DNA from: Myxococcota bacterium
Lineage (GTDB): Bacteria > Myxococcota_A > SURF-8
Direction of reading: 5' to 3'
DNA: 64,000 nucleotides
Assembly: GCA_963674735.2 (NCBI GenBank)
Contig: CAXXQS010000003.1
Span: 64,001 to 128,000, forward strand
Part shown: piece after piece, positions 29,138 to 43,664 of the stretch
Layout of the letters: each line of letters begins with the position of its first letter
Numbering within the stretch: position 1 is the first letter of the stretch
Position numbers and translations under genes: made by a program
Notes under the pieces: model-generated
The model's input: the letters and a program-made list of their open reading frames with translations, nothing else
What the model was told of the DNA's origin: nothing
Database searches by the model: none

Positions 29138-31063
29138 TCATCTTTTTAAGATGAGAGGGAGTAGAACGTGTGAAGCATGGTCGGGTTCCCGATAGAATGT
29201 CAGATCGGGAGGCTCGGGGAGTATGGGGGCAAAGTGGTCAACATCGGCACCAGCGATCGAAATGCGGATGCGGTGGCCTTGCTTGAAAAGGTAAGAAGTC
29301 GGATAAAGGTCGAATATCAATTCGGATTTTTCGCCGGGGACAAGCGGTTCGCCGTCTTTGCGTAGAAAGCTGCGATACGGAACCGGGGTTCGGTAAGGCG
29401 GGGGAGCTTCACTCAGCTTCCGGTGCAGGGCGCGTAACATGCCCTCTGTTACATAGTGAACGCGCCCCTTTTCGTCGATATCTTCTAAGTATACGAAAAC
29501 AGAGGCGTCATCGGCTGAAGAGGCCATGATCAGCTTAACGATGGGGTGTCCGGTAACTTCCATATCAGTTTGCAGAATATCGGACGTATAACATAATAAT
29601 TTTGCATCGGCCTTTTTACGGTGTGGGTATTGGATGGGTTTATGATCGAGGTTGACCAGCGAGACCCAGCGGGATCGGGAACCGGTCGCGGCGCTCGGGT
29701 CCACTGTGTATTTGTCGAATCCGGACTCTTCGGGAGGATTTTGGCTCAGGGTGTTATTGGCACGCAAGTAGAAGGCGGTTGGTTTGGCTTCCGGAGGTGG
29801 CCAGGTATCGGCGGACTTCCAGCGTTCTTCGCCCATGGTAAAGTAGTGGACGGCTTTTTCTTCGGTGATGCCGGTTTCCAATCCTTTCAGATAATGATCG
29901 AAAAATCTTAAGATTTCGCGGCTTTCTTTGAAGAGAGGCTTACGCTTTCGGGCATAAGGGCTGATGTTGGTGTAGTTCCCATGATCCCAGGGACCGATGG
30001 TCAATTTTTTTTGTGGATCGTCGATGTTCATGAAAAGGTGAATTTCCGAACGCACGAATGACGCGTCGAACCAGCCGGTGTAAAAATAGTATGGAAGACC
30101 GGGTTGGTTGAGTTGGGCCAGACGGGTATGAGGGCTGATGGTATCGACGGTCAGTCCTGGAGCATGGGCCGATTCATCGTCCCGATAGACAATGCCGTCG
30201 GCTATGGTGGTGATGTCGCCGTTATGAGCATGCTCCTCGACGGCTTTTTCGAGTTGTTGGTGATTTTTATCGTCATCCACGGGACTTGTGCCGATAATTG
30301 CCAGGGTGGCTTTGGGGCCGACAAATTCTTCCGCACGATTTTTATCGATCGCTTTTGCCAATCTTCCCCATACATCCGATAACCAACTGAGGTGCAGACC
30401 ACCTGGAAATAAAACCTCGGGATAGACATCGAACATCGCATAGCGCGGCATAACTGCTTTGACGGCGGGATGTCCGGTTGTGGCAAGGAAGAGGGCGCTT
30501 CCGCCTGTGTAAGAGTTCCCAAAGGCACCCACACTGCCATCGGACCAAGTTTGCTCGGTGATCCAGTCGACGATCTCGTAGCCGTCTTGAGTTTCTTCTT
30601 TCGAGTAGGGATGGGGGCGTGTTCCAAAGCTAGCTCCGGAGCCGCGAGCATCGACATAAACCCAGGCGTAACCGTGACGGACCACTTCTTGGATCAGTTT
30701 ATGAAAGCGGCCTTTTACCAAGTGGTTGAAGGGCCAACGAAACTGCATGCGGCGGACGTAGCGGGTTTGCATGAGGATCGTCGGAACGTGTTCTCCAGCC
30801 TTCAACCCTTCCGGTAGGTACACATCCACCGCGATTTTAACACCATCGCGCATCGTGATGTAGCGTGAGCTCAGAGTTACGGCCTTGTATTCACGTTTGC
30901 TGCATTGGCACTCGGGATCATTCTGCCACCAGATGCGGTCTCCCTGCCAATGGGCACAAGCCGGGATGAACAGGATCGCCATCAGTAAAAAACCGGCTAG
31001 ATAAGCCGAACCACGATGTTTGGAAACGGCATGGTACATAGAGTGAAGCATGTTGGTTCTCAT
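29138..31063 (-). CDS. CocE/NonD family hydrolase (peptidase S15-like), probable lipoprotein
   Basis: MRDGVKIAVD, VDARGSGASFG, GNSYTG nucleophile, GWFD, GPWDH; IPAC lipobox; ATGA overlap with MFS gene. Confidence 0.92.
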   Translation of the reverse strand: MRTNMLHSMYHAVSKHRGSAYLAGFLLMAILFIPACAHWQGDRIWWQNDPECQCSKREYKAVTLSSRYITMRDGVKIAVDVYLPEGLKAGEHVPTILMQTRYVRRMQFRWPFNHLVKGRFHKLIQEVVRHGYAWVYVDARGSGASFGTRPHPYSKEETQDGYEIVDWITEQTWSDGSVGAFGNSYTGGSALFLATTGHPAVKAVMPRYAMFDVYPEVLFPGGLHLSWLSDVWGRLAKAIDKNRAEEFVGPKATLAIIGTSPVDDDKNHQQLEKAVEEHAHNGDITTIADGIVYRDDESAHAPGLTVDTISPHTRLAQLNQPGLPYYFYTGWFDASFVRSEIHLFMNIDDPQKKLTIGPWDHGNYTNISPYARKRKPLFKESREILRFFDHYLKGLETGITEEKAVHYFTMGEERWKSADTWPPPEAKPTAFYLRANNTLSQNPPEESGFDKYTVDPSAATGSRSRWVSLVNLDHKPIQYPHRKKADAKLLCYTSDILQTDMEVTGHPIVKLIMASSADDASVFVYLEDIDEKGRVHYVTEGMLRALHRKLSEAPPPYRTPVPYRSFLRKDGEPLVPGEKSELIFDLYPTSYLFKQGHRIRISIAGADVDHFAPILPEPPDLTFYREPDHASHVLLPLILKR

Positions 31064-32358
31064 GTTTCTACCTGTAGGTCAATGGCGCAGACTTTGTCGC
31101 AATCCGAGGCGTAAAAACGCGATCCGATCAAAAACAGAAATCCACCGATCAACGAAAAGATGGGAAGGATGGTCAGGGCTGTCTGAAGGTCGCTTGCATC
31201 GGAGATGGCTCCGACAAAAATCGGGCCGATCGAACTGCCCAGTATATGCATGACGATGACGTTCAGGCTGTATGAAGTGGCACGGAGTCCCGGATGGACC
31301 ACATCCTGCGTTACGGCGGCAATGCCGGGAACGAACATGGAGGCGAAAATTCCGGCCAGGAGTGCAACCAGGTATTGCGCGGTCCCGGAGAACAAGGCGA
31401 AGGCGGCGAACAAGAAAAAGCCGGTCAACGCCGAGGTAATGGCTCCGAACACCATGCGAGCATTACGCCGTTTTCGTCCCCAGCGGTCGGCCAGATAACC
31501 TCCCAAGGGCGCTCCGATAATGGCCATAGCCATCACCGCTCCACCTTTGATTCCGGCTTGGCTCATCGGGATGCCTTCTGTACGACAGTAGAAAGTCGGG
31601 AGCCAACTCATAAAGGCAGAGGTGACGAACATGTTGGCGGCGAAACCGAAGTAGGCAAACAGAAGGGAATATGTTCCGAGGAATTGCCGTGCAATTTGTT
31701 TGTAATTGGATTGTGTGCAGCTTCCGGTTGCTTCTGCCTTTTGAACGGGAGCCAACTCTACGGTTTTATAATCGCGAACGAAGAAAAATAGAATGGCAAC
31801 GAGCATGCCGGGGATGGCGACGATCCCGAAAGCGTGGCGCCACCCCCATGTCTCGGCAATAAATCCGCCAAGGGCGATGCCGAGGGCCGAGCCGAGCGGG
31901 ATCGAGGCGTTCCAGAATCCCATGATCTGAGCGCGAGTTTCTTTGGGAAACAAGGCGCTGATCATGGCGGTGCCGCCTGGGGCATAGCCGGCTTCACCTA
32001 TTCCGATGGCGGCGCGGGCAGTAAAGAGTTGTGAAAAGCTTCGCGTATAGGCGCAGGAGGCGGTTGCCAAACTCCAGAGGACCGCCATCAGACCGATACT
32101 GTTTTTTCGGCTCCAGCGGTCGATTAAAATAGAGACGGGAAAAGCAAAAAGCAGGATCGACCAATAAACGGCTGATACCAATGCTCCGCACTGGGTGTCG
32201 GAAAGGCTCCATTCCGCCTTGATGAAAGGGAAGAGCGAAACGACAATCTGACGATCAATATAATCGAACATGTATAAGAGAAACAATAGCCCGAAAACAT
32301 AGTAAGAGTAACCCTTGGAAACCAAATATCCATCTGGATTTCGGGAGTTTGTCGTCAT
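31060..32358 (-). CDS. MFS transporter, Spinster-like
   Basis: FDYIDRQ, DRWSRK, R..IGIGEAGY.P, G.LADR; 12 TM helices. Confidence 0.9.
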   Translation of the reverse strand: MTTNSRNPDGYLVSKGYSYYVFGLLFLLYMFDYIDRQIVVSLFPFIKAEWSLSDTQCGALVSAVYWSILLFAFPVSILIDRWSRKNSIGLMAVLWSLATASCAYTRSFSQLFTARAAIGIGEAGYAPGGTAMISALFPKETRAQIMGFWNASIPLGSALGIALGGFIAETWGWRHAFGIVAIPGMLVAILFFFVRDYKTVELAPVQKAEATGSCTQSNYKQIARQFLGTYSLLFAYFGFAANMFVTSAFMSWLPTFYCRTEGIPMSQAGIKGGAVMAMAIIGAPLGGYLADRWGRKRRNARMVFGAITSALTGFFLFAAFALFSGTAQYLVALLAGIFASMFVPGIAAVTQDVVHPGLRATSYSLNVIVMHILGSSIGPIFVGAISDASDLQTALTILPIFSLIGGFLFLIGSRFYASDCDKVCAIDLQVET

Positions 32359-32493
32359 ACTTCTTTATTCCTGCTCAAACGACGGATCAATTAACGAGTT
32401 CAAGAGTAAAGCGAAAAAGTCTATCTGCAAGGCGACTCCCGGCATCCGGTTCTCCTCCTTTCGAAAAGGAGATCCGCTGTCCGTGGTTAGAAG

Positions 32494-32527
32494 AAAAACG
32501 GGGCGGCAAATGCCGCCCCGAGTTTTT
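32494..32527 (-). terminator. Rho-independent terminator (possibly bidirectional)
   Basis: AAAAA-CGGGGCGGCA-AA-TGCCGCCCCG-AGTTTTT. Confidence 0.8.
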
Positions 32528-32535
32528 GAGAATGA

Positions 32536-34230
32536 TTATTTTCCGTAAGCGCCGACGTTGGCCAAGGCAATCGAGCCCGGACTGACCGTGGTGGGATCGG
32601 TCATTACGTTGATCATGGCCGGTTTTCCGGAGGCGAAAGCCTTTTCCATGGCGGGTTTGATGTCTTCGGGCTTTTCGACATAATAGCCTTCGCAACCGAG
32701 GGCTTCGACCATCTTGTGGTAAGGAACTTCGCCGATCCAGGTGCCGTCGGGAATCGCATGACCCATGCGCAGTTCCTGGCTGTGGCGAATCATACCCCAG
32801 CCGAGATCGTTGCTGACCACGACGACGATCGGCAGTTTTTTACGCAGGGCGGTCTCGAACTCCATGAAGTTGAATCCCAAAGATCCATCGCCGGTAATCA
32901 GGCAGACACGGCTTTCAGGGTGGCGAAGTTTGGCCGCGTTGGCGAAAGGCAGCCCGACGCCCAAACAGCCATAAAGGCCGGAATCGAAGTAGTGGGCCGG
33001 TTTTTGTACGGTGCGAGTCATTCCCATCCAAACCTGGGTGTCGCCTCCATCCGCCACGACGATGTCATTCTCGTTCGACATGAAGTCGTTGACTTCTTTT
33101 GCCAGTCGCAGGGGATGGATGGGAATGTTGTTGCTTTCAAAGTTTTGCTTCTCGATGTCCTTGCCCATCTGGTCGGTTGCAACAAGCTGCTCGACCCAGG
33201 GCTGGAATTTGGTTTTGAAGCCTTCGGCAAGCTTCTTTTCCTCCACTTTGCGATTACAAGCAGCTAAAAGCCCTTGAATATCGGAGAAGATCGGCAGATC
33301 GACCGAACGGTTGCGACCGATCTCATCGGGTTGGATATCGACCTGTACGATTTTGGCATCCTGGCCGATCAGGTTGCCGAACATGTAGAACAAGCTCACG
33401 CGGTTGCCGAGGAAGATGACCAGGTCGGACATCGCCTGCGCCGTCAAAGACGCGCCCGGTCGGGTTGCGATCGAAGACTCGAAGCAAAGCGGATGTTTGT
33501 CGGACATCAAACCACGGCCTAAGCCCATGGTGAAGACCGGTAGGTTGCAGCTTTCGGAGAAGCGAGTCAGTTCGGCTCCGGCATCGGCGTACCAAGCTCC
33601 GTTTCCGGCCAGCAGAATCGGCTGGTTAGCGGATTCGATCAGCTCCAGCAGTTTGTCGGCTCCTTCGAGATCGACCGGATGTGAGTTCAACAGGGTGTTC
33701 GAGTTGTAAACAGAGCCTTCTTCTACGTTGGCATTGAGAACATCGACCGGTAATTCCAGGTAAACCGGGCCCGGACGTCCGGTGCAGGCGGTTCGGTATG
33801 CCATGTCGATAAATTCCGGAATACGTTCTGCCGTATGGCATACGTAAGCTTTTTTAACCATCGGTTCGATGATGGGCGCTTGCGGCATATCTTGCAGATC
33901 GAGCTTTTCGCATGCGCTCACACCCACGCAGCCCGATATGAGCAGCAGGGGCGAATTGGCTTGTTTGGCGTTGGCGACTCCGCTTAGGGCATTGGTGAAT
34001 CCAGGACCGGCGGTTACCATCGCAATGCCGGGTTTGCGAGTCATTCGCCCCCAAGCCTCAGCCATAAAAACCGCGGCCTGTTCGTGACGTGTATCGAAAA
34101 GACGAACACCCGTATCTTCAAGGAATTGATAGATGGGGGTAATGTGGCCACCACTTAGGGTAAAGATCGTTTCAACTTCTTTTTCAAGCAACGCTTTTGC
34201 TACCAACTGAGCGCCCATAACTGTCGTCAT
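32536..34230 (-). CDS. Thiamine-diphosphate-dependent enzyme (IlvB / 2-hydroxyacyl-CoA lyase / oxalyl-CoA decarboxylase-like)
   Basis: FTLSGGHI, RHEQAA, TAGPGFTN, GRPGPVYLELP, GCLGVG, GDGS...N TPP motif; ATG 34230 with GGAGG. Confidence 0.92.
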   Translation of the reverse strand: MTTVMGAQLVAKALLEKEVETIFTLSGGHITPIYQFLEDTGVRLFDTRHEQAAVFMAEAWGRMTRKPGIAMVTAGPGFTNALSGVANAKQANSPLLLISGCVGVSACEKLDLQDMPQAPIIEPMVKKAYVCHTAERIPEFIDMAYRTACTGRPGPVYLELPVDVLNANVEEGSVYNSNTLLNSHPVDLEGADKLLELIESANQPILLAGNGAWYADAGAELTRFSESCNLPVFTMGLGRGLMSDKHPLCFESSIATRPGASLTAQAMSDLVIFLGNRVSLFYMFGNLIGQDAKIVQVDIQPDEIGRNRSVDLPIFSDIQGLLAACNRKVEEKKLAEGFKTKFQPWVEQLVATDQMGKDIEKQNFESNNIPIHPLRLAKEVNDFMSNENDIVVADGGDTQVWMGMTRTVQKPAHYFDSGLYGCLGVGLPFANAAKLRHPESRVCLITGDGSLGFNFMEFETALRKKLPIVVVVSNDLGWGMIRHSQELRMGHAIPDGTWIGEVPYHKMVEALGCEGYYVEKPEDIKPAMEKAFASGKPAMINVMTDPTTVSPGSIALANVGAYGK

Positions 34231-34330
34231 AGCCAACCTCCTGCTATTCGAAAATGATTGATTAACCTTATAAACCGTGAGGATCAGCATTTCAAGTAAA
34301 TATCCGAATTTGCAAAATCGTTTTACGAAA

Positions 34331-34359
34331 TTGACAACCCAAAATATTTGCGATAGATT
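34331..34359 (+). promoter_or_regulatory. Putative sigma70 promoter of C45-like operon
   Basis: TTGACA-N17-TAGATT, about 190 bp upstream of ATG 34546. Confidence 0.6.
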
Positions 34360-34545
34360 GACTTCCGTATCAGGTTTTGCGTCACGTTTCGATGAAATAA
34401 ATTCGGCTCACAGCGGTTGTATGAATTCTAGCCAAGGTGGCGGTTTGCACCCGCGTATTCGATAAATGCTTATAGCGGTGCGCGACGGGTCTATTTGGAT
34501 CTGCCGTGTTTTTTTAAGTCCCTACAAGTGTCAAGAGGAGTCGGT

Positions 34546-37038
34546 ATGCAGTGGCGAATAATGGGGGGGGTCGTTTTTTTATTTGTGCTTGTTTGCGGGA
34601 TAAATGCTTGTGAGGAAACACAGAAGCCGCCCACTGCTCATACCATCGTGTTGAAGGGAAGCGCGTATGACCGCGGATTCGAACATGGCAAAACCTTCAG
34701 CAGTCATATCCACTCCATCTATACGCGCTTGCTTACTTCCTCAATAATTCCTTACCTCAATCGCGAGCAGATGAACATTGCACCCATCCTTAACAAGTAC
34801 AAGGAAGTGCAATTTCTCGATGGCCGCTTCTCCTATCAAATGATGTTGGAGAGCGGCAAACTTATGTATGATTACTACATCCCTGATGAATATCGCGAAG
34901 AGATGCGGGGTATTGCCGATGGCTCGGGCCTCAGCCTGGATGAAGTCATCGTGCTGAATACCTTCTACGATACCATGATGGGCTTTCGTGCTGTGGTGAC
35001 TTTTATCCAGAACATTCAAGAGCCGGTGATCCGGAATCTTGAGGTGACCAATGCGGCCGATACGGATACCATCGACAATAATGGTGATGGCCAAGTGGAC
35101 GAAGCCGATGAGTGGTTAGTTGAACCTTATTTGCCTTCACCCTATGCGACGCTCGTGGAAGTACCCCTTGATGCCGAATTCCGGTTTTTGTTAGACGATC
35201 CGCGTCTAGGCGGCATGACGTACATCGACCCGCGCAACACGGAACCGTTTGGTGAGATGGTTTTCGGAGCAGACTGTATCGACGAAACTTGTCTCAGCCC
35301 GGAATGCAGTAAGCAATCCGGCTATCCTCTCGAATGCCTGGATCCACGTTATCGCGAAGAGGGATGCTATTCTGACGTTTGCTTCGATAATGATTGCGCG
35401 CCCAGGGAAGTGATTCCGGACTGTTATGACGGTCGCTGCCTGAAACGCGAGAAAGACGACTGTGCGTATCTAAGCCATGATTCCGACTGTTACCAGTCAG
35501 GTTGTATGTCGGAGGAATGCATTCCACATATTGTGGAGCCCGACTGTTACTCAGAGGCGTGCTTTGCCGATCAATGCATGCCTTTACGTGATCAGATCGT
35601 TTTGTACCCGCGCCTCAATATCAGTTGTCTTAAAGAATCATGCGTTCAGAATTCGGATCCGGGTTGCGTGAATAAGGATTCGATTCGAATCCGGGTCGAC
35701 CAGACGCAATATACCATCGCCGACGGATCCATTACTACGCGACAACTCGAAGAAGAGCAGGAAGGTGGGCTGATCGATTCCTCGGGCTCGGAATGTAAAG
35801 GGCCTTTGGAGGTGATTTTCCGGCCACCGGGTGGGCTGCCGCCTGCGGCTGAAGTGACCCTCCTTATCCAGGCCAGCGACATGTCGCCCATTTATAGCCC
35901 GGAGCCGTATCACAATCGCAATATGCGTGATGAACGTATTGTCATTACCACCAAAGGCTATGCCGAAAAATACGGTAAAGGCCAGGTTCCCCGCGAAATC
36001 GGAAATCGCGGCGTTTCCGATTCGTCCATGATGCCGCCCTCTATCAGCTTTGCGGCGCGTGGTTCGGCCACCCCCGATGGCGACCCGATTTTAGCCCACC
36101 ATTTTTCCTTGCTCGACAATGACATGATGCATGAGCATTCGTTGCTGCAGATCCATGTTCCGGAAAACGGCACTCCCCATGCCTTTTTAGGGTGGACGGG
36201 GTTGGTGTGGGGCTTCTCGGGTATGAATTCAGAAGGACTGGCTTATGCCGTCAATAACTCCGATTCGCTTGATAATCCACTGGTGGGTCGTACCCTTGAC
36301 GCCATCTTCGAGAATATCGGAGATCTGATCGCCGATCCGAATCTGGAGGGTCTGGCCGAAGCCTTGCAATCGGTAAGACTTCTCGCTTCGGGTACTGCGA
36401 TTGGCTTTGCTGCGCGTGAATTGTTGCAGAACAAAACAACGGTAGATGAGGGCATTCACTATTTGCATAGCATCGCGCACACTTACGGCTGGAACGTTTT
36501 ACTAGCCGATGCCGAGGGAGGGCTTGCTGCCGTTGAAATCGATGCCGGTACGCAGTCCACAACACCCTATGATCCGGACGTGCTCGGCGAACGCGACGGA
36601 TTTTACTATTACACCCCCGACGACAGCAATCCCCAGAATCTCGATGCGCAAGGACAACGTTGGAGTAGCGTCGGACCCGACGACCTGCGCATGGCCAGCC
36701 ACTATCGGAAGAATATTGAGGATATGGAAGAGATTCCTTTGATGCAAATATTCTCTCCGCGCCAGCAATACAAATGGACGGGCTTCTACTTCCGCTCCCT
36801 TCGTTCATACTACATTCTAGGCGATCGCATCGAAGAGAAGTTGGGGTCGATAGATGTTTCAACCGCCATCGATATTCTGCGCACACCGGAATTGGTCGAC
36901 ACGCGTGACTCGATGAGTTCGGTGGTTTTCGAACCGGCCAAGAAGCGTTTTCATTGGGCCATGGGTGATGTGCCGGCGACAGGCCTTCCATATGAACCCT
37001 TCGACTTTAGTACCGACATGGAAGGGGGGACGCCATGA
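34546..37038 (+). CDS. Peptidase C45 / Ntn-hydrolase-like lipoprotein with large Cys-rich insertion
   Basis: INAC lipobox; LKGSAYDRGFEHG, EEMRGIADG...LN (alpha part); SFAARGSATPDG, G..G.FSGMNSEGL, GWNVLLAD, SVVFEP (beta part). Confidence 0.8.
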   Translation: MQWRIMGGVVFLFVLVCGINACEETQKPPTAHTIVLKGSAYDRGFEHGKTFSSHIHSIYTRLLTSSIIPYLNREQMNIAPILNKYKEVQFLDGRFSYQMMLESGKLMYDYYIPDEYREEMRGIADGSGLSLDEVIVLNTFYDTMMGFRAVVTFIQNIQEPVIRNLEVTNAADTDTIDNNGDGQVDEADEWLVEPYLPSPYATLVEVPLDAEFRFLLDDPRLGGMTYIDPRNTEPFGEMVFGADCIDETCLSPECSKQSGYPLECLDPRYREEGCYSDVCFDNDCAPREVIPDCYDGRCLKREKDDCAYLSHDSDCYQSGCMSEECIPHIVEPDCYSEACFADQCMPLRDQIVLYPRLNISCLKESCVQNSDPGCVNKDSIRIRVDQTQYTIADGSITTRQLEEEQEGGLIDSSGSECKGPLEVIFRPPGGLPPAAEVTLLIQASDMSPIYSPEPYHNRNMRDERIVITTKGYAEKYGKGQVPREIGNRGVSDSSMMPPSISFAARGSATPDGDPILAHHFSLLDNDMMHEHSLLQIHVPENGTPHAFLGWTGLVWGFSGMNSEGLAYAVNNSDSLDNPLVGRTLDAIFENIGDLIADPNLEGLAEALQSVRLLASGTAIGFAARELLQNKTTVDEGIHYLHSIAHTYGWNVLLADAEGGLAAVEIDAGTQSTTPYDPDVLGERDGFYYYTPDDSNPQNLDAQGQRWSSVGPDDLRMASHYRKNIEDMEEIPLMQIFSPRQQYKWTGFYFRSLRSYYILGDRIEEKLGSIDVSTAIDILRTPELVDTRDSMSSVVFEPAKKRFHWAMGDVPATGLPYEPFDFSTDMEGGTP
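35275..35667 (+). repeat. Coding Cys-rich repeat, C-x4-C-x4-C units
   Basis: CIDETCLSPEC, CYSDVCFDNDC, CYDGRC, CYQSGCMSEEC, CYSEACFADQC, CLKESC; 19 Cys in 131 aa. Confidence 0.8.
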
Positions 37039-38276
37039 CCGGGAGAAGAAACAACAAATCTTTGAATGTTCGGGCGTTTTGGCTTGCCTTGGTCTTCTGT
37101 CTCCTATGGTCGCCGCAACTGATGGCGGGGTTCACCGAAACCCTGCCCATGAGCACCTTTTTGATCGATGAAGCTTTCACGATCAGTTGGGTCGATAAAC
37201 GCTGGGATAACAACGGCGACGGTGCTGCGTTGGTGGATTCCGTCGAACGCTTCGAGCCGGGAGGCGGTAGACAAGGGGAAATCATTCCCGAACCCAAGGC
37301 GACCTATATGGTTCTCATCAACCGTTTGCAATACGGTATTCTGGATGATCTCACCTTTGGTATTGGGATACCGGTTGTGATCGCGACGGATGTCGATCCC
37401 AACATCAAATGGGAAACGGGTGATTACCAAAGGCAGATCGGGCGCTCCTACAGCGAGGATGACTTCTGGGCCTGGGCCGAGAGCATGGGGCAGCCGCGCA
37501 TTGACTCATGGAGCGGTAACAAAGGGGAGTTGTCCGATATCGTTTTAGGCTTGCGTTTTCGCTGGACGCACCGAATTCCGGTGTTCAAGGAGATCGGCCT
37601 GCAAAGTGCCTTGTCCGTCCTCGGCGTCATTCCCACCGGTAAACATGCCGATCCCGAAGAACTGGTTGCGGTAGGCACCACCATGTGGGATCTGAATTTC
37701 CAGGGTGATCTGGCTTTCCATCTCTCGTTCGACAAATCCTTCGAGGAAGAACTGGATGGACGTCTGCAGATCGGGTTGGACCTTTTTTACGAAACATTCT
37801 TCGACCGTGAGCTTACATCTGCGACCGGTGAGAAAAATCCCTTGATGCGAAATTTCGCTCCGTATATCGGGGAAAACTACACAGTCAATCCCGGTGACTT
37901 CAGCGGCTTCGGTGTGATGATCGATACGGTTCCCTACAAAGGGCCCGCCTGGGCAACTTGGTTAGTGGGGCATGATCCCGAGAAAGCGAAAGCGTTACCC
38001 CCGATTCTCACTTTGTCGGTCGGGTATACGTTCGTACATCTGCAACAATCGGACTGGAGCTCTGAATTTCCCCTCTGGGACTACGATCAAGAGGAACTGT
38101 GGAAACCCGGCTATAAAAACATTCTTTCCGCACAAGTGATGGTCAGCTTCCTGCGGTTGGGTGTGCCGCTACGTGTTTACGTGCAACACCGTAGCCTCTC
38201 GTTGATTCCGGGGAAAAACGCGCGGGCTCCGGAAGTTTTGACTACGGGGATCCAGATTCCGCTGAAGTTCTGGTAG
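37035..38276 (+). CDS. Putative outer-membrane beta-barrel/transporter-like protein
   Basis: Signal peptide; LQYGILDDLTFGIGIP and GELSDIVLGLRFR...PTG motifs as in MetA-pathway-type barrels; C-terminal aromatic residues; ATGA overlap with upstream gene. Confidence 0.6.
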   Translation: MTGRRNNKSLNVRAFWLALVFCLLWSPQLMAGFTETLPMSTFLIDEAFTISWVDKRWDNNGDGAALVDSVERFEPGGGRQGEIIPEPKATYMVLINRLQYGILDDLTFGIGIPVVIATDVDPNIKWETGDYQRQIGRSYSEDDFWAWAESMGQPRIDSWSGNKGELSDIVLGLRFRWTHRIPVFKEIGLQSALSVLGVIPTGKHADPEELVAVGTTMWDLNFQGDLAFHLSFDKSFEEELDGRLQIGLDLFYETFFDRELTSATGEKNPLMRNFAPYIGENYTVNPGDFSGFGVMIDTVPYKGPAWATWLVGHDPEKAKALPPILTLSVGYTFVHLQQSDWSSEFPLWDYDQEELWKPGYKNILSAQVMVSFLRLGVPLRVYVQHRSLSLIPGKNARAPEVLTTGIQIPLKFW

Positions 38277-39399: not shown

Positions 39400-39616
39400 C
39401 TCTTCTCCTTCCATCAGCCCAAGTGATTCGTTACCTCAAATTCGATGATAAATTTCTGCAGGGGTCGCAAATTCTGAGTGAGACCGAAAGCATCATAGCG
39501 CACAAGGTTTGAATTGCAAAATTCTTATGCTCAAACCACTCGTCCTTGATTGGACAAAGTATATATAGTAAGGTAAATAGTTATATTCTCGATGATTAAT
39601 CGCGAGGTTGTATCCC

Positions 39617-42112
39617 ATGAGCATTCATCCGGTCAACGCACGTTTGAAGGATTTGATCCTGACTGCGCCCTACGAAATTTGTATCGAACGTGCACGCTAC
39701 GTGACGGAGTCTTATCGCCGTCATGAGGGTCAAGCCGCGGCTATGAAAGCGGCGTACGCCTTTTCCAATACTTTATCCCAAATGAGTGTGTATCTGCTTG
39801 ATGACGAACTCGTGATCGGAAATCGTTCGAGCAAATTGGTGGGCTCGGTTATTCCAATCGAGCGCGGTGACATCAATACGGTGCTCGATCTTGAACTTGA
39901 CCGGCTAACCCGCCGTGAGCGTCAGCCCTACCACATCGATGCCGCAGACCGGCTGGAGTTGCAGGAGGATATCCTGCCCTACTGGCGTGGGAAAACCTTG
40001 CGCGATCATAAAAACACCTTGTGGAAAGCAAACGACCTGGTGATGCGTCCGGCCTTCAATCCGGTAAGTCTTTTTCGGCGATGGCGCAGCTTGGACATTG
40101 GTCGAATGAAGGATATTCTGGCTGTGCCGAATCCGACACCACGCTATATGATGCGGGGGCTGCGGGAGTTGTTTTACAATAACCCGGCTTTTATCATGAA
40201 CGTCTTCGACGTACAGGGCCATCTTATCGTTGGCCATAAGCATGTGTTAAGCAAGGGTTTTTCCGGTATCGAAGCCGAAACGGCCGAGCGGCTGGTTCGG
40301 GCGCGCCGGGAACGTGATTCGGAGGGGATCGCGTTTTGCGAAGCGGTGATGATCTCTTGCCGAGCCGTCAAACATTTCGGAGAACGACTGGCTAACGAGG
40401 CGGAACGTGAGGCCCGGAACAGTTCCGACGAGAATCGCCGGCGTGAACTCTTGGCCATGGCGAAGCGCTGCCGCAAGGTGCCGTATCAACCTCCGGAAAC
40501 CTTCCATGAAGCCGTTCAGGCACTGTGGTTGACGCAGGTGGGGGCTTTGGTGGCTCACGGTATGCCCGCCATTTTCGCCATCGGACGCTTCGACCAATAC
40601 CTTGAGCCGTTCTACCGGCAGGACAAAGCCGCCGGGCGTTTGACCGATGCACATGCCCTGCGTTTGTTGGAAGAACTGCTTGTCAAGCTGAGCAGCAATC
40701 TATTGCTTATACCTTTTGCTGGAAAGGCGACGGGAAACGAGTTGGGGGCCGACAGTTGCGTGCCGACCATCGGGGGCGTGACGCCGGAGGGAGAGGATGC
40801 CGTCAACGATTTATCCTATCTGATCCTCGATGCTTATCGGAACGTGCGGTCTATGGGAAATAGTTTCAGCATCCGTTTGTCCGATAAAACACCAGAGCGT
40901 TTTTGGCGAAAAACGATGGCGACTTATCGCGAAACGTCCGGCGCGGCGTTGTTTTATGACGAAAAGACCATCGGGGCTCTTGAAAACTGTGGTGTCAGCG
41001 AAGCCGATGCCCGCGACTACGGGATTATCGGTTGCGTGGAACCCACCAGCGATGGCAATACCTTTGGGTGTACATCCGGGAATGATATTTCCTTCAACGC
41101 AGCGCTGGAAATGGCGTTGCATGATGGTGTTCTGCATATCATGGGACGGCGTGTCGGGCTCTCTACCGGCGACCCGTCCAGTTTTCGTTCTTTCGAGGAA
41201 TTGTTCAACGTCTTTAAACGGCAAGTCGAATTTATGGTCGACTTTGTGGCGCGCGCGGTAAATCTGAAGGATCAGGCCTATCGCGATCACCTCCCGTGTC
41301 CCTTCGTGTCGGCGACCTTGCGGGGCTGCGTCGAAAACGGACGCGATATGACGGCGGGAGGGGCGGATTACAATTTCAGTTCCATCAGCGCTCGTGGATT
41401 GGGGACGGTGGTCGACTCACTGTGTGCCATTCGTCAAGCGGTGTTTGAAGATGACTATGTGAGTCTGACGCGGCTGGTGCGTGCGATGGACCACAACTAC
41501 TCGGATGAAGAGGTTTTACAAGCCTACCTGAAAAATCGCTGTCCGGTATATGGCTCGGACGACAACCGTGCCGATGTTTTGGCGCAGGAAATCGTCGAAC
41601 ACTTCTGCAAGACGGTTTTGGCACAGTCCACCGTTCGGGGAGGATGTTTCCGTCCGGGATTTTTCTCTTATGGGATGCATGTTTTGGAAGGTCTGTTCCT
41701 TGGAGCCTCGGCGAATGGTCGTCTGGCGGGCGAGCCGGTCAGCAACAGCTTTTCGCCGGCCAACGGTTCCGAGCGTAACGGTCCCACGGCCGTGATGCGT
41801 TCCGTCGGGAAAAACGATCATACGCTTATCTCGAATGGCTGTGCCCTGAATATCAAGCTTTCCCCGGCGATGTTCGAAGGCGAGGAACGCCTCGATAAAA
41901 TGGTGGCTTTGGTTAAGGGCTATTTTAAACAGGGTGGAATGGAATTATCGCCGAATGTGATTTCGAGCGATACGCTGCGTGCCGCCCAAAAAGATCCCGA
42001 GGCCTATCGTGATTTGGTGGTGCGTGTCTCGGGCTATTCGGCGCTTTTTGCCGATTTAGGTAAACCGTTACAGGATGAAATCATCCAGCGCACCGAATTC
42101 GGACATCTCTAA
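39617..42112 (+). CDS. Glycyl radical enzyme (PFL-like, eliminase-type), substrate unknown
   Basis: IERAR, ELVIGN, GRFDQYL, Cys loop IIGCVEP, Gly loop LVVRVSGYSA. Confidence 0.95.
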   Translation: MSIHPVNARLKDLILTAPYEICIERARYVTESYRRHEGQAAAMKAAYAFSNTLSQMSVYLLDDELVIGNRSSKLVGSVIPIERGDINTVLDLELDRLTRRERQPYHIDAADRLELQEDILPYWRGKTLRDHKNTLWKANDLVMRPAFNPVSLFRRWRSLDIGRMKDILAVPNPTPRYMMRGLRELFYNNPAFIMNVFDVQGHLIVGHKHVLSKGFSGIEAETAERLVRARRERDSEGIAFCEAVMISCRAVKHFGERLANEAEREARNSSDENRRRELLAMAKRCRKVPYQPPETFHEAVQALWLTQVGALVAHGMPAIFAIGRFDQYLEPFYRQDKAAGRLTDAHALRLLEELLVKLSSNLLLIPFAGKATGNELGADSCVPTIGGVTPEGEDAVNDLSYLILDAYRNVRSMGNSFSIRLSDKTPERFWRKTMATYRETSGAALFYDEKTIGALENCGVSEADARDYGIIGCVEPTSDGNTFGCTSGNDISFNAALEMALHDGVLHIMGRRVGLSTGDPSSFRSFEELFNVFKRQVEFMVDFVARAVNLKDQAYRDHLPCPFVSATLRGCVENGRDMTAGGADYNFSSISARGLGTVVDSLCAIRQAVFEDDYVSLTRLVRAMDHNYSDEEVLQAYLKNRCPVYGSDDNRADVLAQEIVEHFCKTVLAQSTVRGGCFRPGFFSYGMHVLEGLFLGASANGRLAGEPVSNSFSPANGSERNGPTAVMRSVGKNDHTLISNGCALNIKLSPAMFEGEERLDKMVALVKGYFKQGGMELSPNVISSDTLRAAQKDPEAYRDLVVRVSGYSALFADLGKPLQDEIIQRTEFGHL

Positions 42113-42224
42113 GTCGATGATTCCATTTTTCGCGAAATTCTCATGGAAAAGCATATAAGTTTAAGCTAAAAACGCATATTGAATGCTTCCAGAGTGCTGT
42201 GGCTTGAGCCGGAGGGGATGCGCA

Positions 42225-43664
42225 ATGAAGGGACTGTTTTTGTTATCCTGTTGGGTGATTGTTTTCCTTTTCATGCTGAGTGGATGTGATACCGGTGATG
42301 ATAGCGTGTCGTCTCATTCTCCCGAAACGGATGGTGATAGTGAAAACGGAGTTGGCGAAAGTGCGGAGGACTCCGATTCCGATGAGCTCCACTCGGTAGA
42401 TGGGGATACCGATCGCGATGGCGCGGACGAAGCGGATGTCGAAAAAGATAACGAATCCGGCTGGGTGTTACCGGACGGTTTCGAAGCCTTCGATCCGGCG
42501 GCTTGTCAACTGGAAGAGCCGATCGATTGGGGCGGAATCGATCCGGCCTACGAACGGGTTCATTCTGGAAATGCGGTTTTGGACAAGAACTTTTATTTGC
42601 TGACCCTTTTAATAGAAGTCGAGGCTTATCGACAGTCCGTCTTGACCGATCCTGCGTTATCTGCCCGAGCGGAAGAGGAAACCGCCGATTTGGCCACCGC
42701 TGCGGCGAATTGTGCGGGGGATGTGGCCTGCGCGGCCGGATATCTGACGTTTGACGAAACGGATCTTGTGGACCTTACCGCGGCCTTTACGTCTGTTTTC
42801 AACAAGGATTCCGCGCCGCACATCATTTCCGAACATCTGCGGCCCTCCGGGATGTTTCACCTCTATTCCGCTGAGATCGATTCACTGTATATTGAGCAGG
42901 TGCTTACCGAAACCTTTAACGGCCTAGCCGGAGCCTTTTCCCGTTTCGGCAACGATCTGGGTGCGACCGGACTGAATGCCATTCTGGTTGACCAGGTCTC
43001 CTCACTATCGGAGGATGTACTCTTTTTCGAACCGCTTTTACAAACAACCTTGGCGGTGATGGCGCAGATTTCGCGTGACGAAGCCGGGCGCTATGAGCCC
43101 ATGGAAGAGGGCGAGAACAAGGCGGCGTTGGACGCGTTATCTTCGATCGACTGGGAGGCTTATCCCTATATCGCGATGTTGCTACCGGGCATGGGGCCCG
43201 ACGATCTGGAAACTCCCCTGGACCTGGCTAGCGCCTTGCGTTGCGATCTGGCCGCCGAACGCTATCGGGCCGGTCTGGTGCCCATCATTATCCCGTCGGG
43301 CGGTCATGTCCATCCCGATCAGACGCCGTATAGCGAAGCGGTTGAGATGAAACGCTATCTGATGGAAACCCATGGAGTGCCCGAAACGGCGATTTTGATC
43401 GATCCACACGCGCGTCATACCACTACCAACCTACGCAATGTTACACGGCTCCTCATCCGCTATGGTTTTCCGGTAGATCGGCCGGTTCTCACCACAACCG
43501 ATCTTTTCCAAAGCGCGTATATCTTGAGTATGGAAGGACGTTGTAACCGGGAACTGGGTTATGTACCCTGGCGGTCAGTCGTCAGACTCGGCGATACCGA
43601 CAACTGCTGGATGGTTCACCCCGCCAGTTTGCATCTGGCTCCCGCGGATCCGTTGGATCCCTAG
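42225..43664 (+). CDS. YdcF/DUF218-family lipoprotein
   Basis: LSGC lipobox, acidic linker, SGGHVHP, EAVEMK, DPHARHTTTNLRN. Confidence 0.85.
   Translation: MKGLFLLSCWVIVFLFMLSGCDTGDDSVSSHSPETDGDSENGVGESAEDSDSDELHSVDGDTDRDGADEADVEKDNESGWVLPDGFEAFDPAACQLEEPIDWGGIDPAYERVHSGNAVLDKNFYLLTLLIEVEAYRQSVLTDPALSARAEEETADLATAAANCAGDVACAAGYLTFDETDLVDLTAAFTSVFNKDSAPHIISEHLRPSGMFHLYSAEIDSLYIEQVLTETFNGLAGAFSRFGNDLGATGLNAILVDQVSSLSEDVLFFEPLLQTTLAVMAQISRDEAGRYEPMEEGENKAALDALSSIDWEAYPYIAMLLPGMGPDDLETPLDLASALRCDLAAERYRAGLVPIIIPSGGHVHPDQTPYSEAVEMKRYLMETHGVPETAILIDPHARHTTTNLRNVTRLLIRYGFPVDRPVLTTTDLFQSAYILSMEGRCNRELGYVPWRSVVRLGDTDNCWMVHPASLHLAPADPLDP

Follow-up and report, generated by a model that had tools for sequence, protein, structure and literature searches.

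A conserved Myxococcota gene pair encoding a probable C45-type pseudo-acylase and a predicted outer-membrane barrel

We describe two adjacent genes, here called A and B, in a 64,000-nucleotide (nt) stretch of DNA from a Myxococcota bacterium (GenBank assembly GCA_963674735.2, contig CAXXQS010000003.1, positions 64,001 to 128,000); this whole stretch is called the window, and positions are counted from its first letter. Gene A encodes a predicted lipoprotein with the fold of the peptidase C45 group of N-terminal nucleophile (Ntn) hydrolases, in which the residues of the canonical active site have been replaced, and gene B, which overlaps it, encodes a predicted outer-membrane barrel. In one group of bacteria from soil and sediment, A-type genes always stand beside a gene for a B-type channel, and this points to an undescribed envelope module, which would probably capture compounds like fatty amides and pass them on. 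Both parts come from known superfamilies; undescribed so far are A's condition as a pseudo-enzyme and its insert, the greater size of the barrel and the conservation of the A-B or A-B-acylase arrangement. No description of the pair was found in the literature searched, a scope that excluded subscription journals. The pair and its parts are listed below.

34546..37038, + strand: gene A, 830-amino-acid (aa) predicted lipoprotein of C45/Ntn fold without the catalytic residues, a probable pseudo-acylase (Pfam, NCBIfam, AlphaFold, VIA-align)
34546..34611, + strand: predicted signal peptide and lipobox, …LVCGINAC with Cys22 (sequence; Cys22 column)
34636..35025, + strand: alpha-subunit-equivalent region, residues 31-160, with LNTFYDT at its end (NCBIfam, PDB profile search, model helices 40-157)
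35026..36039, + strand: insert of 338 residues, 161-498 (alignment, AlphaFold model)
36040..36042, + strand: TCT codon of Ser499, at the Ntn nucleophile position (hhalign pairing, structure alignments, family counts)
36040..37035, + strand: beta-subunit-equivalent region, residues 499-830 (hhalign, column counts, structure alignments)
37035..37038, + strand: ATGA overlap of the gene A stop and the gene B start, with a G-rich ribosome binding site (RBS), GGAAGGGGGG, just upstream
37035..38276, + strand: gene B, predicted 413-aa outer-membrane barrel (AlphaFold, Foldseek, conserved columns)

Fold, active site and insert of the gene A protein

The open reading frame (ORF) of gene A opens with a TTG at 34495, and its likely start is the ATG at 34546, which has a GAGGAG 7 nt upstream and is supported by the homologues. 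At the end of the N-terminal segment MQWRIMGGVVFLFVLVCGINAC stands a lipobox-like Cys22 (…GINAC). Of the 196 family members 192 share this Cys, and four have gaps in its place; the family set was made by pooling an initial protein search, which gave 144 matches, with 80 genomic loci and leaving out identical sequences. Database records name these proteins only "hypothetical protein" or a generic member of an acyltransferase family. Because a conserved lipobox Cys follows a signal peptide, the product is most likely a lipoprotein, its lipidation being predicted from these sequence features.

Pfam family AAT (PF03417) matches gene A at 1.4e-11 (44.9 bits against a cut-off of 23.2), and the NCBIfam C45_proenzyme model (NF040521) matches it with 110.6 bits against a curated cut-off of 85. 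The latter match falls in three stretches, with model positions 1-84 at window 34654-34977, 92-165 at 36046-36276 and 152-228 at 36349-36567. The AlphaFold model of the protein, built on 23 sequences, has a mean predicted local distance difference test score (pLDDT) of 82.8 and a predicted template modelling score (pTM) of 0.82, and contains both the alpha and the beta parts of the alpha-beta-beta-alpha Ntn fold. VIA-align superimposes its residues 31-828 on isopenicillin-N acyltransferase (2x1e_C) with Z 37.4 and a root-mean-square deviation of 2.6 Å over 332 aligned residues, and also finds the NAAA precursor (Z 30.8) and acid ceramidase (Z 28.2); Foldseek agrees. A PDB profile search with gene A went no further than the alpha-subunit helix in AAT, acid ceramidase and NAAA, and an ESM Atlas search with the homologue P0009 gave nothing beyond that protein's own Myxococcota cluster, which is labelled AAT. 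A sequence-only reading of this DNA had the alpha-subunit motifs ending near 34970 and the beta-subunit motifs beginning at 36040, and these limits hold, with the motif NTFYDT at 34957-34974 and the structure alignments of the beta part starting at residue 499.

A search with the beta region (residues 480-830) gave 200 proteins at E up to 0.001, and 43 weaker matches of 300-520 aa from it form the canonical set used for comparison. When the family profile is aligned to these canonical relatives by hhalign (probability 100%, E 8.4e-49), Ser499 pairs with their Cys and AHHFS with their G-R-N-L-D. The mature beta subunits of penicillin V acylase (Cys1), NAAA, acid ceramidase (Cys143), PvdQ and penicillin G acylase (Ser1) likewise all align from model residue 499. 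The gene A residues in question are PPSISFAARG (497-506), AHHFS (517-521, window 36094-36108) in the place of GRNxD, and ASH (within MASHY, window 36691-36705) in the place of TNH. A canonical C45 paralogue in the same genome (L081) reads GPGCTQVFTSGDATPDGRLYHARNLDW where gene A reads PPSISFAARGSATPDGDPILAHHFSLLD. The sequence-only reading had already seen PPSISFAA at the nucleophile place, with TCT at 36040, and AHHFS in the place of GRNxD, and the codon position, hhalign and the structure alignments all bear this out.

The five positions concerned, which we take to be the catalytic and oxyanion residues on the basis of what is known of NAAA, acid ceramidase and bile-salt hydrolase, compare as follows between the canonical relatives (n = 43) and the family (n = 196).

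S499: canonical Cys 41/43; family Ser 127, Ala 31, Pro 30, Thr 4, Gly 3, one gap
H518: canonical Arg 36/43; family His 147, Gln 43
H519: canonical Asn 39/43; family His 186, Asn 9
S521: canonical Asp 40/43; family Ala 140, Ser 41
S718: canonical Asn (of T-N-H) 39/43; family Ser 142, Ala 17, Cys 10 and others

No family member (0/196) has Cys at position 499. Among the six commonest family residues at each position there is no Arg at 518, no Asp at 521 and no Asn at 718, and Asn is present at 519 in 9 of the 196. Ala stands at 499 even in close relatives of the window protein (L007, L011, P0005, P0008 and P0012), and Fitch parsimony on a FastTree phylogeny of 194 beta-domain sequences requires at least 32 changes at this position; D524, in contrast, is invariant (196/196). 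Of the Ser and the HHFS motif, whose conservation in homologues was to be checked, position 499 is variable and 518, 519 and 521 are divided as listed. Position 498, which would be the P1 residue of a cleavage, is Pro in 148 of the 196. Known Ntn precursors mostly have Gly at P1. A Pro at P1 and a labile position 499 argue against an autoproteolytic maturation of A. Across the 196 sequences 56 columns are at least 95% identical, so that selection on A has been kept, and the family, judged from these columns, is clearly under selection and not for an N-terminal nucleophile. Since position 499 is labile and other residues stand in place of the Arg, Asn, Asp and TNH Asn, the gene A product is very probably a pseudo-enzyme with respect to Ntn chemistry.

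The Ser codon itself appears sound. We compared the region with contigs of three sequencing runs of one study, listed as DNA or of unstated type, one of which (X3) covers the stretch in part; the public runs listed include none of RNA. The contigs of two public runs from one sample, possibly the window's own source, have zero differences over 35900-37200, so the TCT at 36040, for which a TGT had been considered, is not an evident sequencing error. In any case, a Cys at 499 is without precedent among the 196 family members. The condition under which the sequence-only reading would have been refuted, namely that close homologues have Cys (the Ser being a private mutation or a sequencing error) and are unlinked to the barrel gene, does not hold, given these counts and the linkage described below.

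We note that the same genome contains two further, degenerate C45 paralogues. One (L082, G000:C2:472391-473233) by eye apparently lacks Cys at the nucleophile motif (…GAGGLSLAV…), and the other (L083, G000:C1:55691-56548) keeps the Cys and lacks R-N-x-D (…CSGFTVWGGSTQDGEMISAAIQEY). From these sequences, catalytic residues in the C45 fold may have been lost more than once in this lineage.

The insert is taken to span residues ~161-498 because the NF040521 match breaks off after 34977 and resumes at 36046. At 338 residues it agrees well with the spacer of about 350 residues, with a DNNGDGQVDE loop and a Cys-rich repeat, that had been read from the sequence. The acidic DNNGDGQVDE loop occupies residues 177-186 (window 35074-35103), and the Cys-rich stretch (window 35275-35667, residues 244-374) contains 19 Cys, with C-x4-C-x4-C triads. 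Most homologues, which run to 600-700 aa, do not have this Cys-rich stretch, and the confidence of the model is low at residues 284-334. The stretch reaches its greatest length in the window protein and P0003, is less extended in homologues of 750 aa and is missing from those of 600-650 aa, and by sequence it looks like a clade-specific expansion within the insert. A block of eight beta-strands follows in the model at residues 381-469, and the insert closes with a conserved linker (…H-x-R-x-MRDER…, MRDER at 35923-35937) that ends in Pro-Pro. Residues 151-498 by themselves match no Pfam family at E up to 10, so that, of the "Ig-like beta region" that had been proposed here, the strands are present in the model and the label "Ig-like" comes from their pattern only.

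The barrel gene and its linkage to gene A

Gene B encodes a protein with a predicted signal peptide (cleavage at …LMA/GFTE), a mature N-terminus GFTETLP starting at 37128 and a C-terminal KFW. Its AlphaFold model, built on 29 sequences, has a pLDDT of 87 and 12 strands of at least 8 residues in the DSSP list. Foldseek places FapF first, with E 5.4e-15 to 3e-13 and TM (template modelling score) 0.63-0.71 over the target (5o67: 5.8e-15, TM 0.70), and the COG4313 channel Pput2725 (4rl8) a close second, with E 3.4e-14 and TM 0.75 over the target; FadL and the porins rank far below these two. In sequence searches PF13557 (Phenol_MetA_deg) matches two of 29 gene B homologues weakly (best E 3.2e-4), and a gene B profile found nothing meaningful among PDB sequences, the best matches being antibody chains at E 0.17. 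The long loops of the protein carry the invariant motifs RYEPGGGxQG, GDYQ…DFWxWA and PTG, the last at residues 200-202 (window 37632-37640), and T34 and P38, in the conserved mature N-terminus, are also invariant. Going by the model, the gene B product is most likely an outer-membrane channel that has 12 strands and belongs structurally with the COG4313 channels and FapF. The sequence-only reading, which had a predicted barrel gene coupled to gene A by an ATGA overlap, was right in this respect, as it was in its other statements on the sequence itself, with the overlap at 37035-37038 and the model and Foldseek matches just given.

The linkage of the two genes was followed through the 80 related loci, nearly all of them labelled Myxococcota or "Deltaproteobacteria" metagenome-assembled genomes. 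A B homologue lies directly 3' of the A homologue in 74 of them, with 34-62% identity over the best segment, and five of the six loci without B stop within 250 nt of gene A. The 4-nt A/B overlap is common to most loci with a clean ORF start. When the ORFs of these loci are clustered, only A (79 loci) and B (73) are broadly shared, the next clusters being shadow frames of A and B. We note that L020 is the sole related locus that has more than 4 kb 3' of its gene A homologue and no tblastn barrel match.

A survey of 301 genomes of the phylum, in which the A query was the shorter paralogue P0077 at E up to 1e-50, found B in 41 genomes (25 of 209 genera) and A in 37, and all 37 A-positive genomes carry B adjacent to A. 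Four genomes have B only in this survey; these may carry long-insert forms of A that fall below the threshold. Occurrence is uneven among families (19/23 in one and 0/27 in another, to take two). The window's own genome has a second A-B pair (C1:694821-698011). Judged from gene order and overlap, A and B form one unit, a two-gene envelope module. The "two-gene surface system" of the sequence-only reading is therefore upheld as a two-gene envelope system (74/80 loci, 37/37 genomes), its exposure at the surface being presumed.

Recurring neighbours, proposed working and rival explanations

The neighbours of the pair were scanned with Pfam on 34 flanking proteins from 11 loci and then by tblastn over the 80 loci. 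Directly 3' of B and on the same strand, a gene for an S45-type acylase (Pfam Penicil_amidase, 820-910 aa) is present in 27 of 63 loci, the 63 being those in which B is complete and followed by no less than 1500 nt, and the acylases have lipobox-like N-termini. This third partner, a genuine lipoprotein hydrolase, was not seen in the sequence-only reading. The second copy in the window's genome is such a three-gene operon (G000:C1:692199-698011, - strand; L085, L090). Its A2 (P0077) has 653 aa and no Cys-rich stretch, its B2 is 58% identical to B, and its third gene encodes an 843-aa S45 penicillin-amidase-family lipoprotein (C1:692199-694730). In the same clusters as the acylase there are genes for DUF819 membrane proteins (17/80 loci) and pyridoxal-phosphate (PLP) decarboxylases (19/80), the best NCBIfam matches of the latter being tyrosine and glutamate decarboxylase models, below their cut-offs. 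Two neighbouring acylases match the NCBIfam PvdQ model weakly, scoring 70.8 and 73.5 bits where the cut-off is 950.

In the window, genes A and B are on the + strand and the flanking genes are on the opposite strand. Two features beside the pair are:

34291..34545, no strand: divergent intergenic region between the minus-strand thiamine-pyrophosphate (TPP) enzyme gene and gene A, with the GAGGAG RBS
29138..31063, - strand: CocE/NonD hydrolase, a possible third partner, with a lipobox-like N-terminus (…FIPAC), overlapping the upstream gene for a major facilitator superfamily (MFS) transporter

The overlap of the CocE/NonD gene with the MFS gene (31060-32358) is 4 nt. A homologue of the CocE/NonD hydrolase is present in 8 of the 80 loci, in the window's clade, and in four of these (L004, L007, L010 and L011) it immediately precedes A in the same orientation.

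The reading that we prefer, to which we give about an even chance, is that A is a binding lipoprotein and B a channel, and that the two work with an acylase on hydrophobic acyl-amides; we infer that A binds a ligand and contacts B, and likewise infer what class of substrate is moved and in which direction. A descends from a C45 self-cleaving acyl-amide hydrolase and would cleave neither itself nor a substrate by the Ntn mechanism, keeping the alpha-beta-beta-alpha body as a single uncut chain, with an extra domain where the cut once was. Its former substrate pocket would hold a hydrophobic compound, an acyl-amide or an ester, and B would pass this compound, or part of it, across the outer membrane. 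The chemistry would fall to a separately encoded lipoprotein hydrolase; in many relatives, and in the second copy of this genome, this would be the S45 acylase, and for the window copy it may be the CocE/NonD hydrolase nearby. The sequence-only reading had left a choice between an autoproteolytic enzyme with a Ser nucleophile and a catalytically dead capture lipoprotein feeding a dedicated channel. The latter fits better, its catalytic loss being supported by the family counts; the capture and the contact with the barrel are parts that we infer.

Several observations weigh against this preferred reading. There is no S45 acylase gene directly 3' of B in 36 of the 63 loci, and the window pair itself has none, the next gene after B being a convergent HpnA-like gene. 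The CocE/NonD hydrolase is perhaps tied to the A-B pair, and the 8 loci of 80 are what this tie is drawn from. The gene B protein of the window matches no Pfam family at E up to 10 and no NCBIfam model. FapF, the other close structure, is a secretion channel, so that transport through B may run in either direction. Finally, H519, D524, H529 and H531 are near-invariant beside the old active site and could form a new catalytic site.

This last point leads to the rival explanation that A is an enzyme with a new, non-Ntn site made from H518, H519, D524, H529 and H531, for example a metal site on the old scaffold. Conservation speaks for it (D524 in 196/196, H519 in 186/196, H529 in 190/196 and H531 in 193/196), as do the location of these residues on two strands beside the old nucleophile and the fact that the canonical catalytic residues have given way to His and not to arbitrary residues. 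However, the closest canonical relatives also have H529 and H531 (HEH in P0184 and P0196), so these two did not arise anew in this family; H518 is Gln in 43/196; and with a genuine hydrolase gene often next door a second enzyme is less necessary. We consider such a site unlikely. That A is an active Ntn enzyme, with Ser499 serving as the nucleophile for self-cleavage at Pro498-Ser499 and for the subsequent hydrolysis of an amide, is very improbable. Ser is a valid Ntn nucleophile elsewhere, the beta subunits of penicillin G acylase and PvdQ starting with Ser and aligning from 499, and Ser is both the commonest residue at this position (127/196) and its parsimony root state; but 68/196 members, close relatives included, carry Ala, Pro, Thr or Gly there, in at least 32 changes, the canonical Arg, Asn, Asp and TNH Asn have each given way to other residues, and P1 is Pro in three quarters of the family (148/196). 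The self-cleaving enzyme of the sequence-only reading is disfavoured on the same grounds.

The pair could also be structural, with B an anchor or translocon that brings A to the surface, or with A a plug or assembly partner of B as in LptD-LptE. The strict linkage and the translational coupling suggest a 1:1 stoichiometry, the long loops of B with their invariant motifs could dock a partner, the structures nearest to B include FapF, a polypeptide secretion channel, and an insert with a Cys-rich stretch and an acidic loop would be typical of exported proteins. We regard this as fairly unlikely; a large folded A is not expected to pass through a 12-strand barrel, and a structural role is compatible with the preferred reading, in that a surface-docked binding lipoprotein fits both. 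An export role, in which the module would mature and release a self-made acylated precursor such as a lipopeptide or siderophore-like compound, with A holding it, the S45 acylase deacylating it as PvdQ does for pyoverdine and B releasing it, seems to us quite improbable. The neighbouring acylases match the PvdQ model and barrels of the FapF type export; yet that match is far below its cut-off, no non-ribosomal peptide synthetase or other biosynthetic genes were seen in the 34 flanking proteins (11 loci) or in the window flanks, and the recurring partners, a membrane protein and a PLP decarboxylase, fit breakdown better. These rivals overlap in part with the preferred reading.

The binding-lipoprotein reading can be taken further. 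A Myxococcota outer-membrane "utilisome" for lipid amides, in which the dead acylase, retained for its pocket alone and equipped with a docking domain, would be a substrate-binding lid on the conserved loops of an enlarged COG4313-type channel and a lipoprotein acylase (S45 or CocE/NonD) would trim the catch, is a speculative version of it and rather doubtful. If it were true, predatory or scavenging bacteria would harvest acyl-homoserine lactones, lipopeptides, N-acyl amino acids or ceramide-like lipids from their surroundings, and the module would be a first in two ways, as a small barrel for hydrophobic amides with a lipoprotein cap and as a case of an Ntn-hydrolase pseudo-enzyme in transport. 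A narrower, sphingolipid reading was considered, combining the acid-ceramidase-like fold, the SphA-type channel and a Pyridoxal_deC PLP enzyme; the PLP enzyme fits tyrosine/glutamate decarboxylases and nothing else supports this reading, so sphingolipids are left as one possible substrate class.

There is a fair chance that the A-B module is a new type of envelope machine. If the preferred reading is right, A would be a clear natural case of an Ntn hydrolase turned non-catalytic, with four or five catalytic positions lost and 56 columns held. The poorly understood COG4313 hydrophobic-molecule channels would gain a partner protein and a mechanism that is genetically testable, channel, binder and enzyme being co-encoded, and the module would offer a lead on how Myxococcota take up and process acylated signals and lipids.

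Other genes near the pair can be summarized briefly. The window region 29138-34290 (- strand) is a three-gene row divergent from gene A that encodes the TPP enzyme, the MFS transporter and the CocE/NonD hydrolase; the TPP enzyme is acetolactate synthase- or 2-hydroxyacyl-CoA lyase-like and below every equivalog cut-off. In L009, TPP and CocE genes like those of the window flank the A-B pair. On the other side, 39608-43664 encodes an 834-aa glycyl radical enzyme of the PFL2/hydroxyproline-dehydratase type, again below every equivalog cut-off, and then a 493-aa DUF218-domain protein. As parts of the module we rejected the MFS, HpnA-like and DUF218 neighbours (0/80 related loci), the glycyl radical enzyme (2/80) and the TPP enzyme (5/80). 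A promoter and terminator scan gave one promoter-like and two terminator-like sites, below the counts in shuffled sequence, and is not informative; the sigma-70-like match at 34331-34359 (+) is a consensus match only and, with 1 found against 4.3 expected in shuffles, is not evidence. In the block of loci L050-L077, mostly labelled Archangium, 21 loci have an NDH-2-like flavoprotein gene (Pyr_redox_2 and NDH2_C) 3' of the barrel or acylase gene on the same strand (for example L050:9082-10395), and 20 have a YchJ-like SEC-C-motif protein farther downstream.

Comparison with known systems

The gene A protein shares with peptidase C45 proteins (PF03417, NF040521) the same Ntn fold in both halves, 332 of 350 residues being aligned to isopenicillin-N acyltransferase, and the motifs GIADG…LNT and GMNxxGL and the laD strand. 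It differs from them in having no Cys nucleophile, H-H-x-A/S in place of R-N-x-D and Ser in place of the TNH Asn, and in its 338-residue insert at the former cleavage site, its lipoprotein signal and its obligate linkage to a barrel gene. The fold is also like that of the uncleaved precursors of acid ceramidase and NAAA (Z 28-31), with a weak sequence match at the last alpha-subunit helix. These two act on long-chain lipid amides, substrates that by analogy would suit a COG4313-type channel; unlike A, they are eukaryotic, lysosomal, soluble and active enzymes with a Cys nucleophile, and have neither insert nor barrel partner.

According to passages of the paper on COG4313 channels (PMC4493636), these are 12-strand barrels of 270-320 aa with an N-terminal segment in the lumen, they are implicated in the uptake of hydrophobic molecules, including sphingosine through SphA, and Pro119-Thr120-Gly121 are among the 17 residues identical in three members. 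Like the COG4313 channels Pput2725, TcpY and SphA (PF13557), gene B has 12 long strands and a short conserved N-terminal segment before strand 1, its conserved mature N-terminus being compatible with a lumen segment of this type. It also has an invariant P-T-G in a long loop, which may correspond to the published Pro-Thr-Gly. Compared with the family lengths given in those passages, the mature gene B protein, at ~380 aa, is ~60-110 residues longer, the extra residues lying in strongly conserved loops. No COG4313 channel with a lipoprotein partner was found in the literature searched or in the passages of PMC4493636.

FapF, as described in PMC5557850, forms trimers, and its helical plug is connected with a coiled coil in the periplasm. 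Gene B, unlike FapF as described there, has only ~10 residues between the predicted signal cleavage and strand 1 (residue 42), with no long periplasmic extension, and no fap-like genes were found in the window flanks or among the 34 flanking proteins scanned.

The A-B module has no TonB-dependent transporter and no SusD fold, and differs from the SusCD utilisomes of Bacteroidota in its small 12-strand barrel, its phylum and its likely class of substrate. The arrangement is nevertheless analogous to that of the SusCD utilisomes (compare 10.1101/2022.08.15.503959), in that one locus would encode a channel together with a lipoprotein that binds without catalysis and a second lipoprotein that is a hydrolase.

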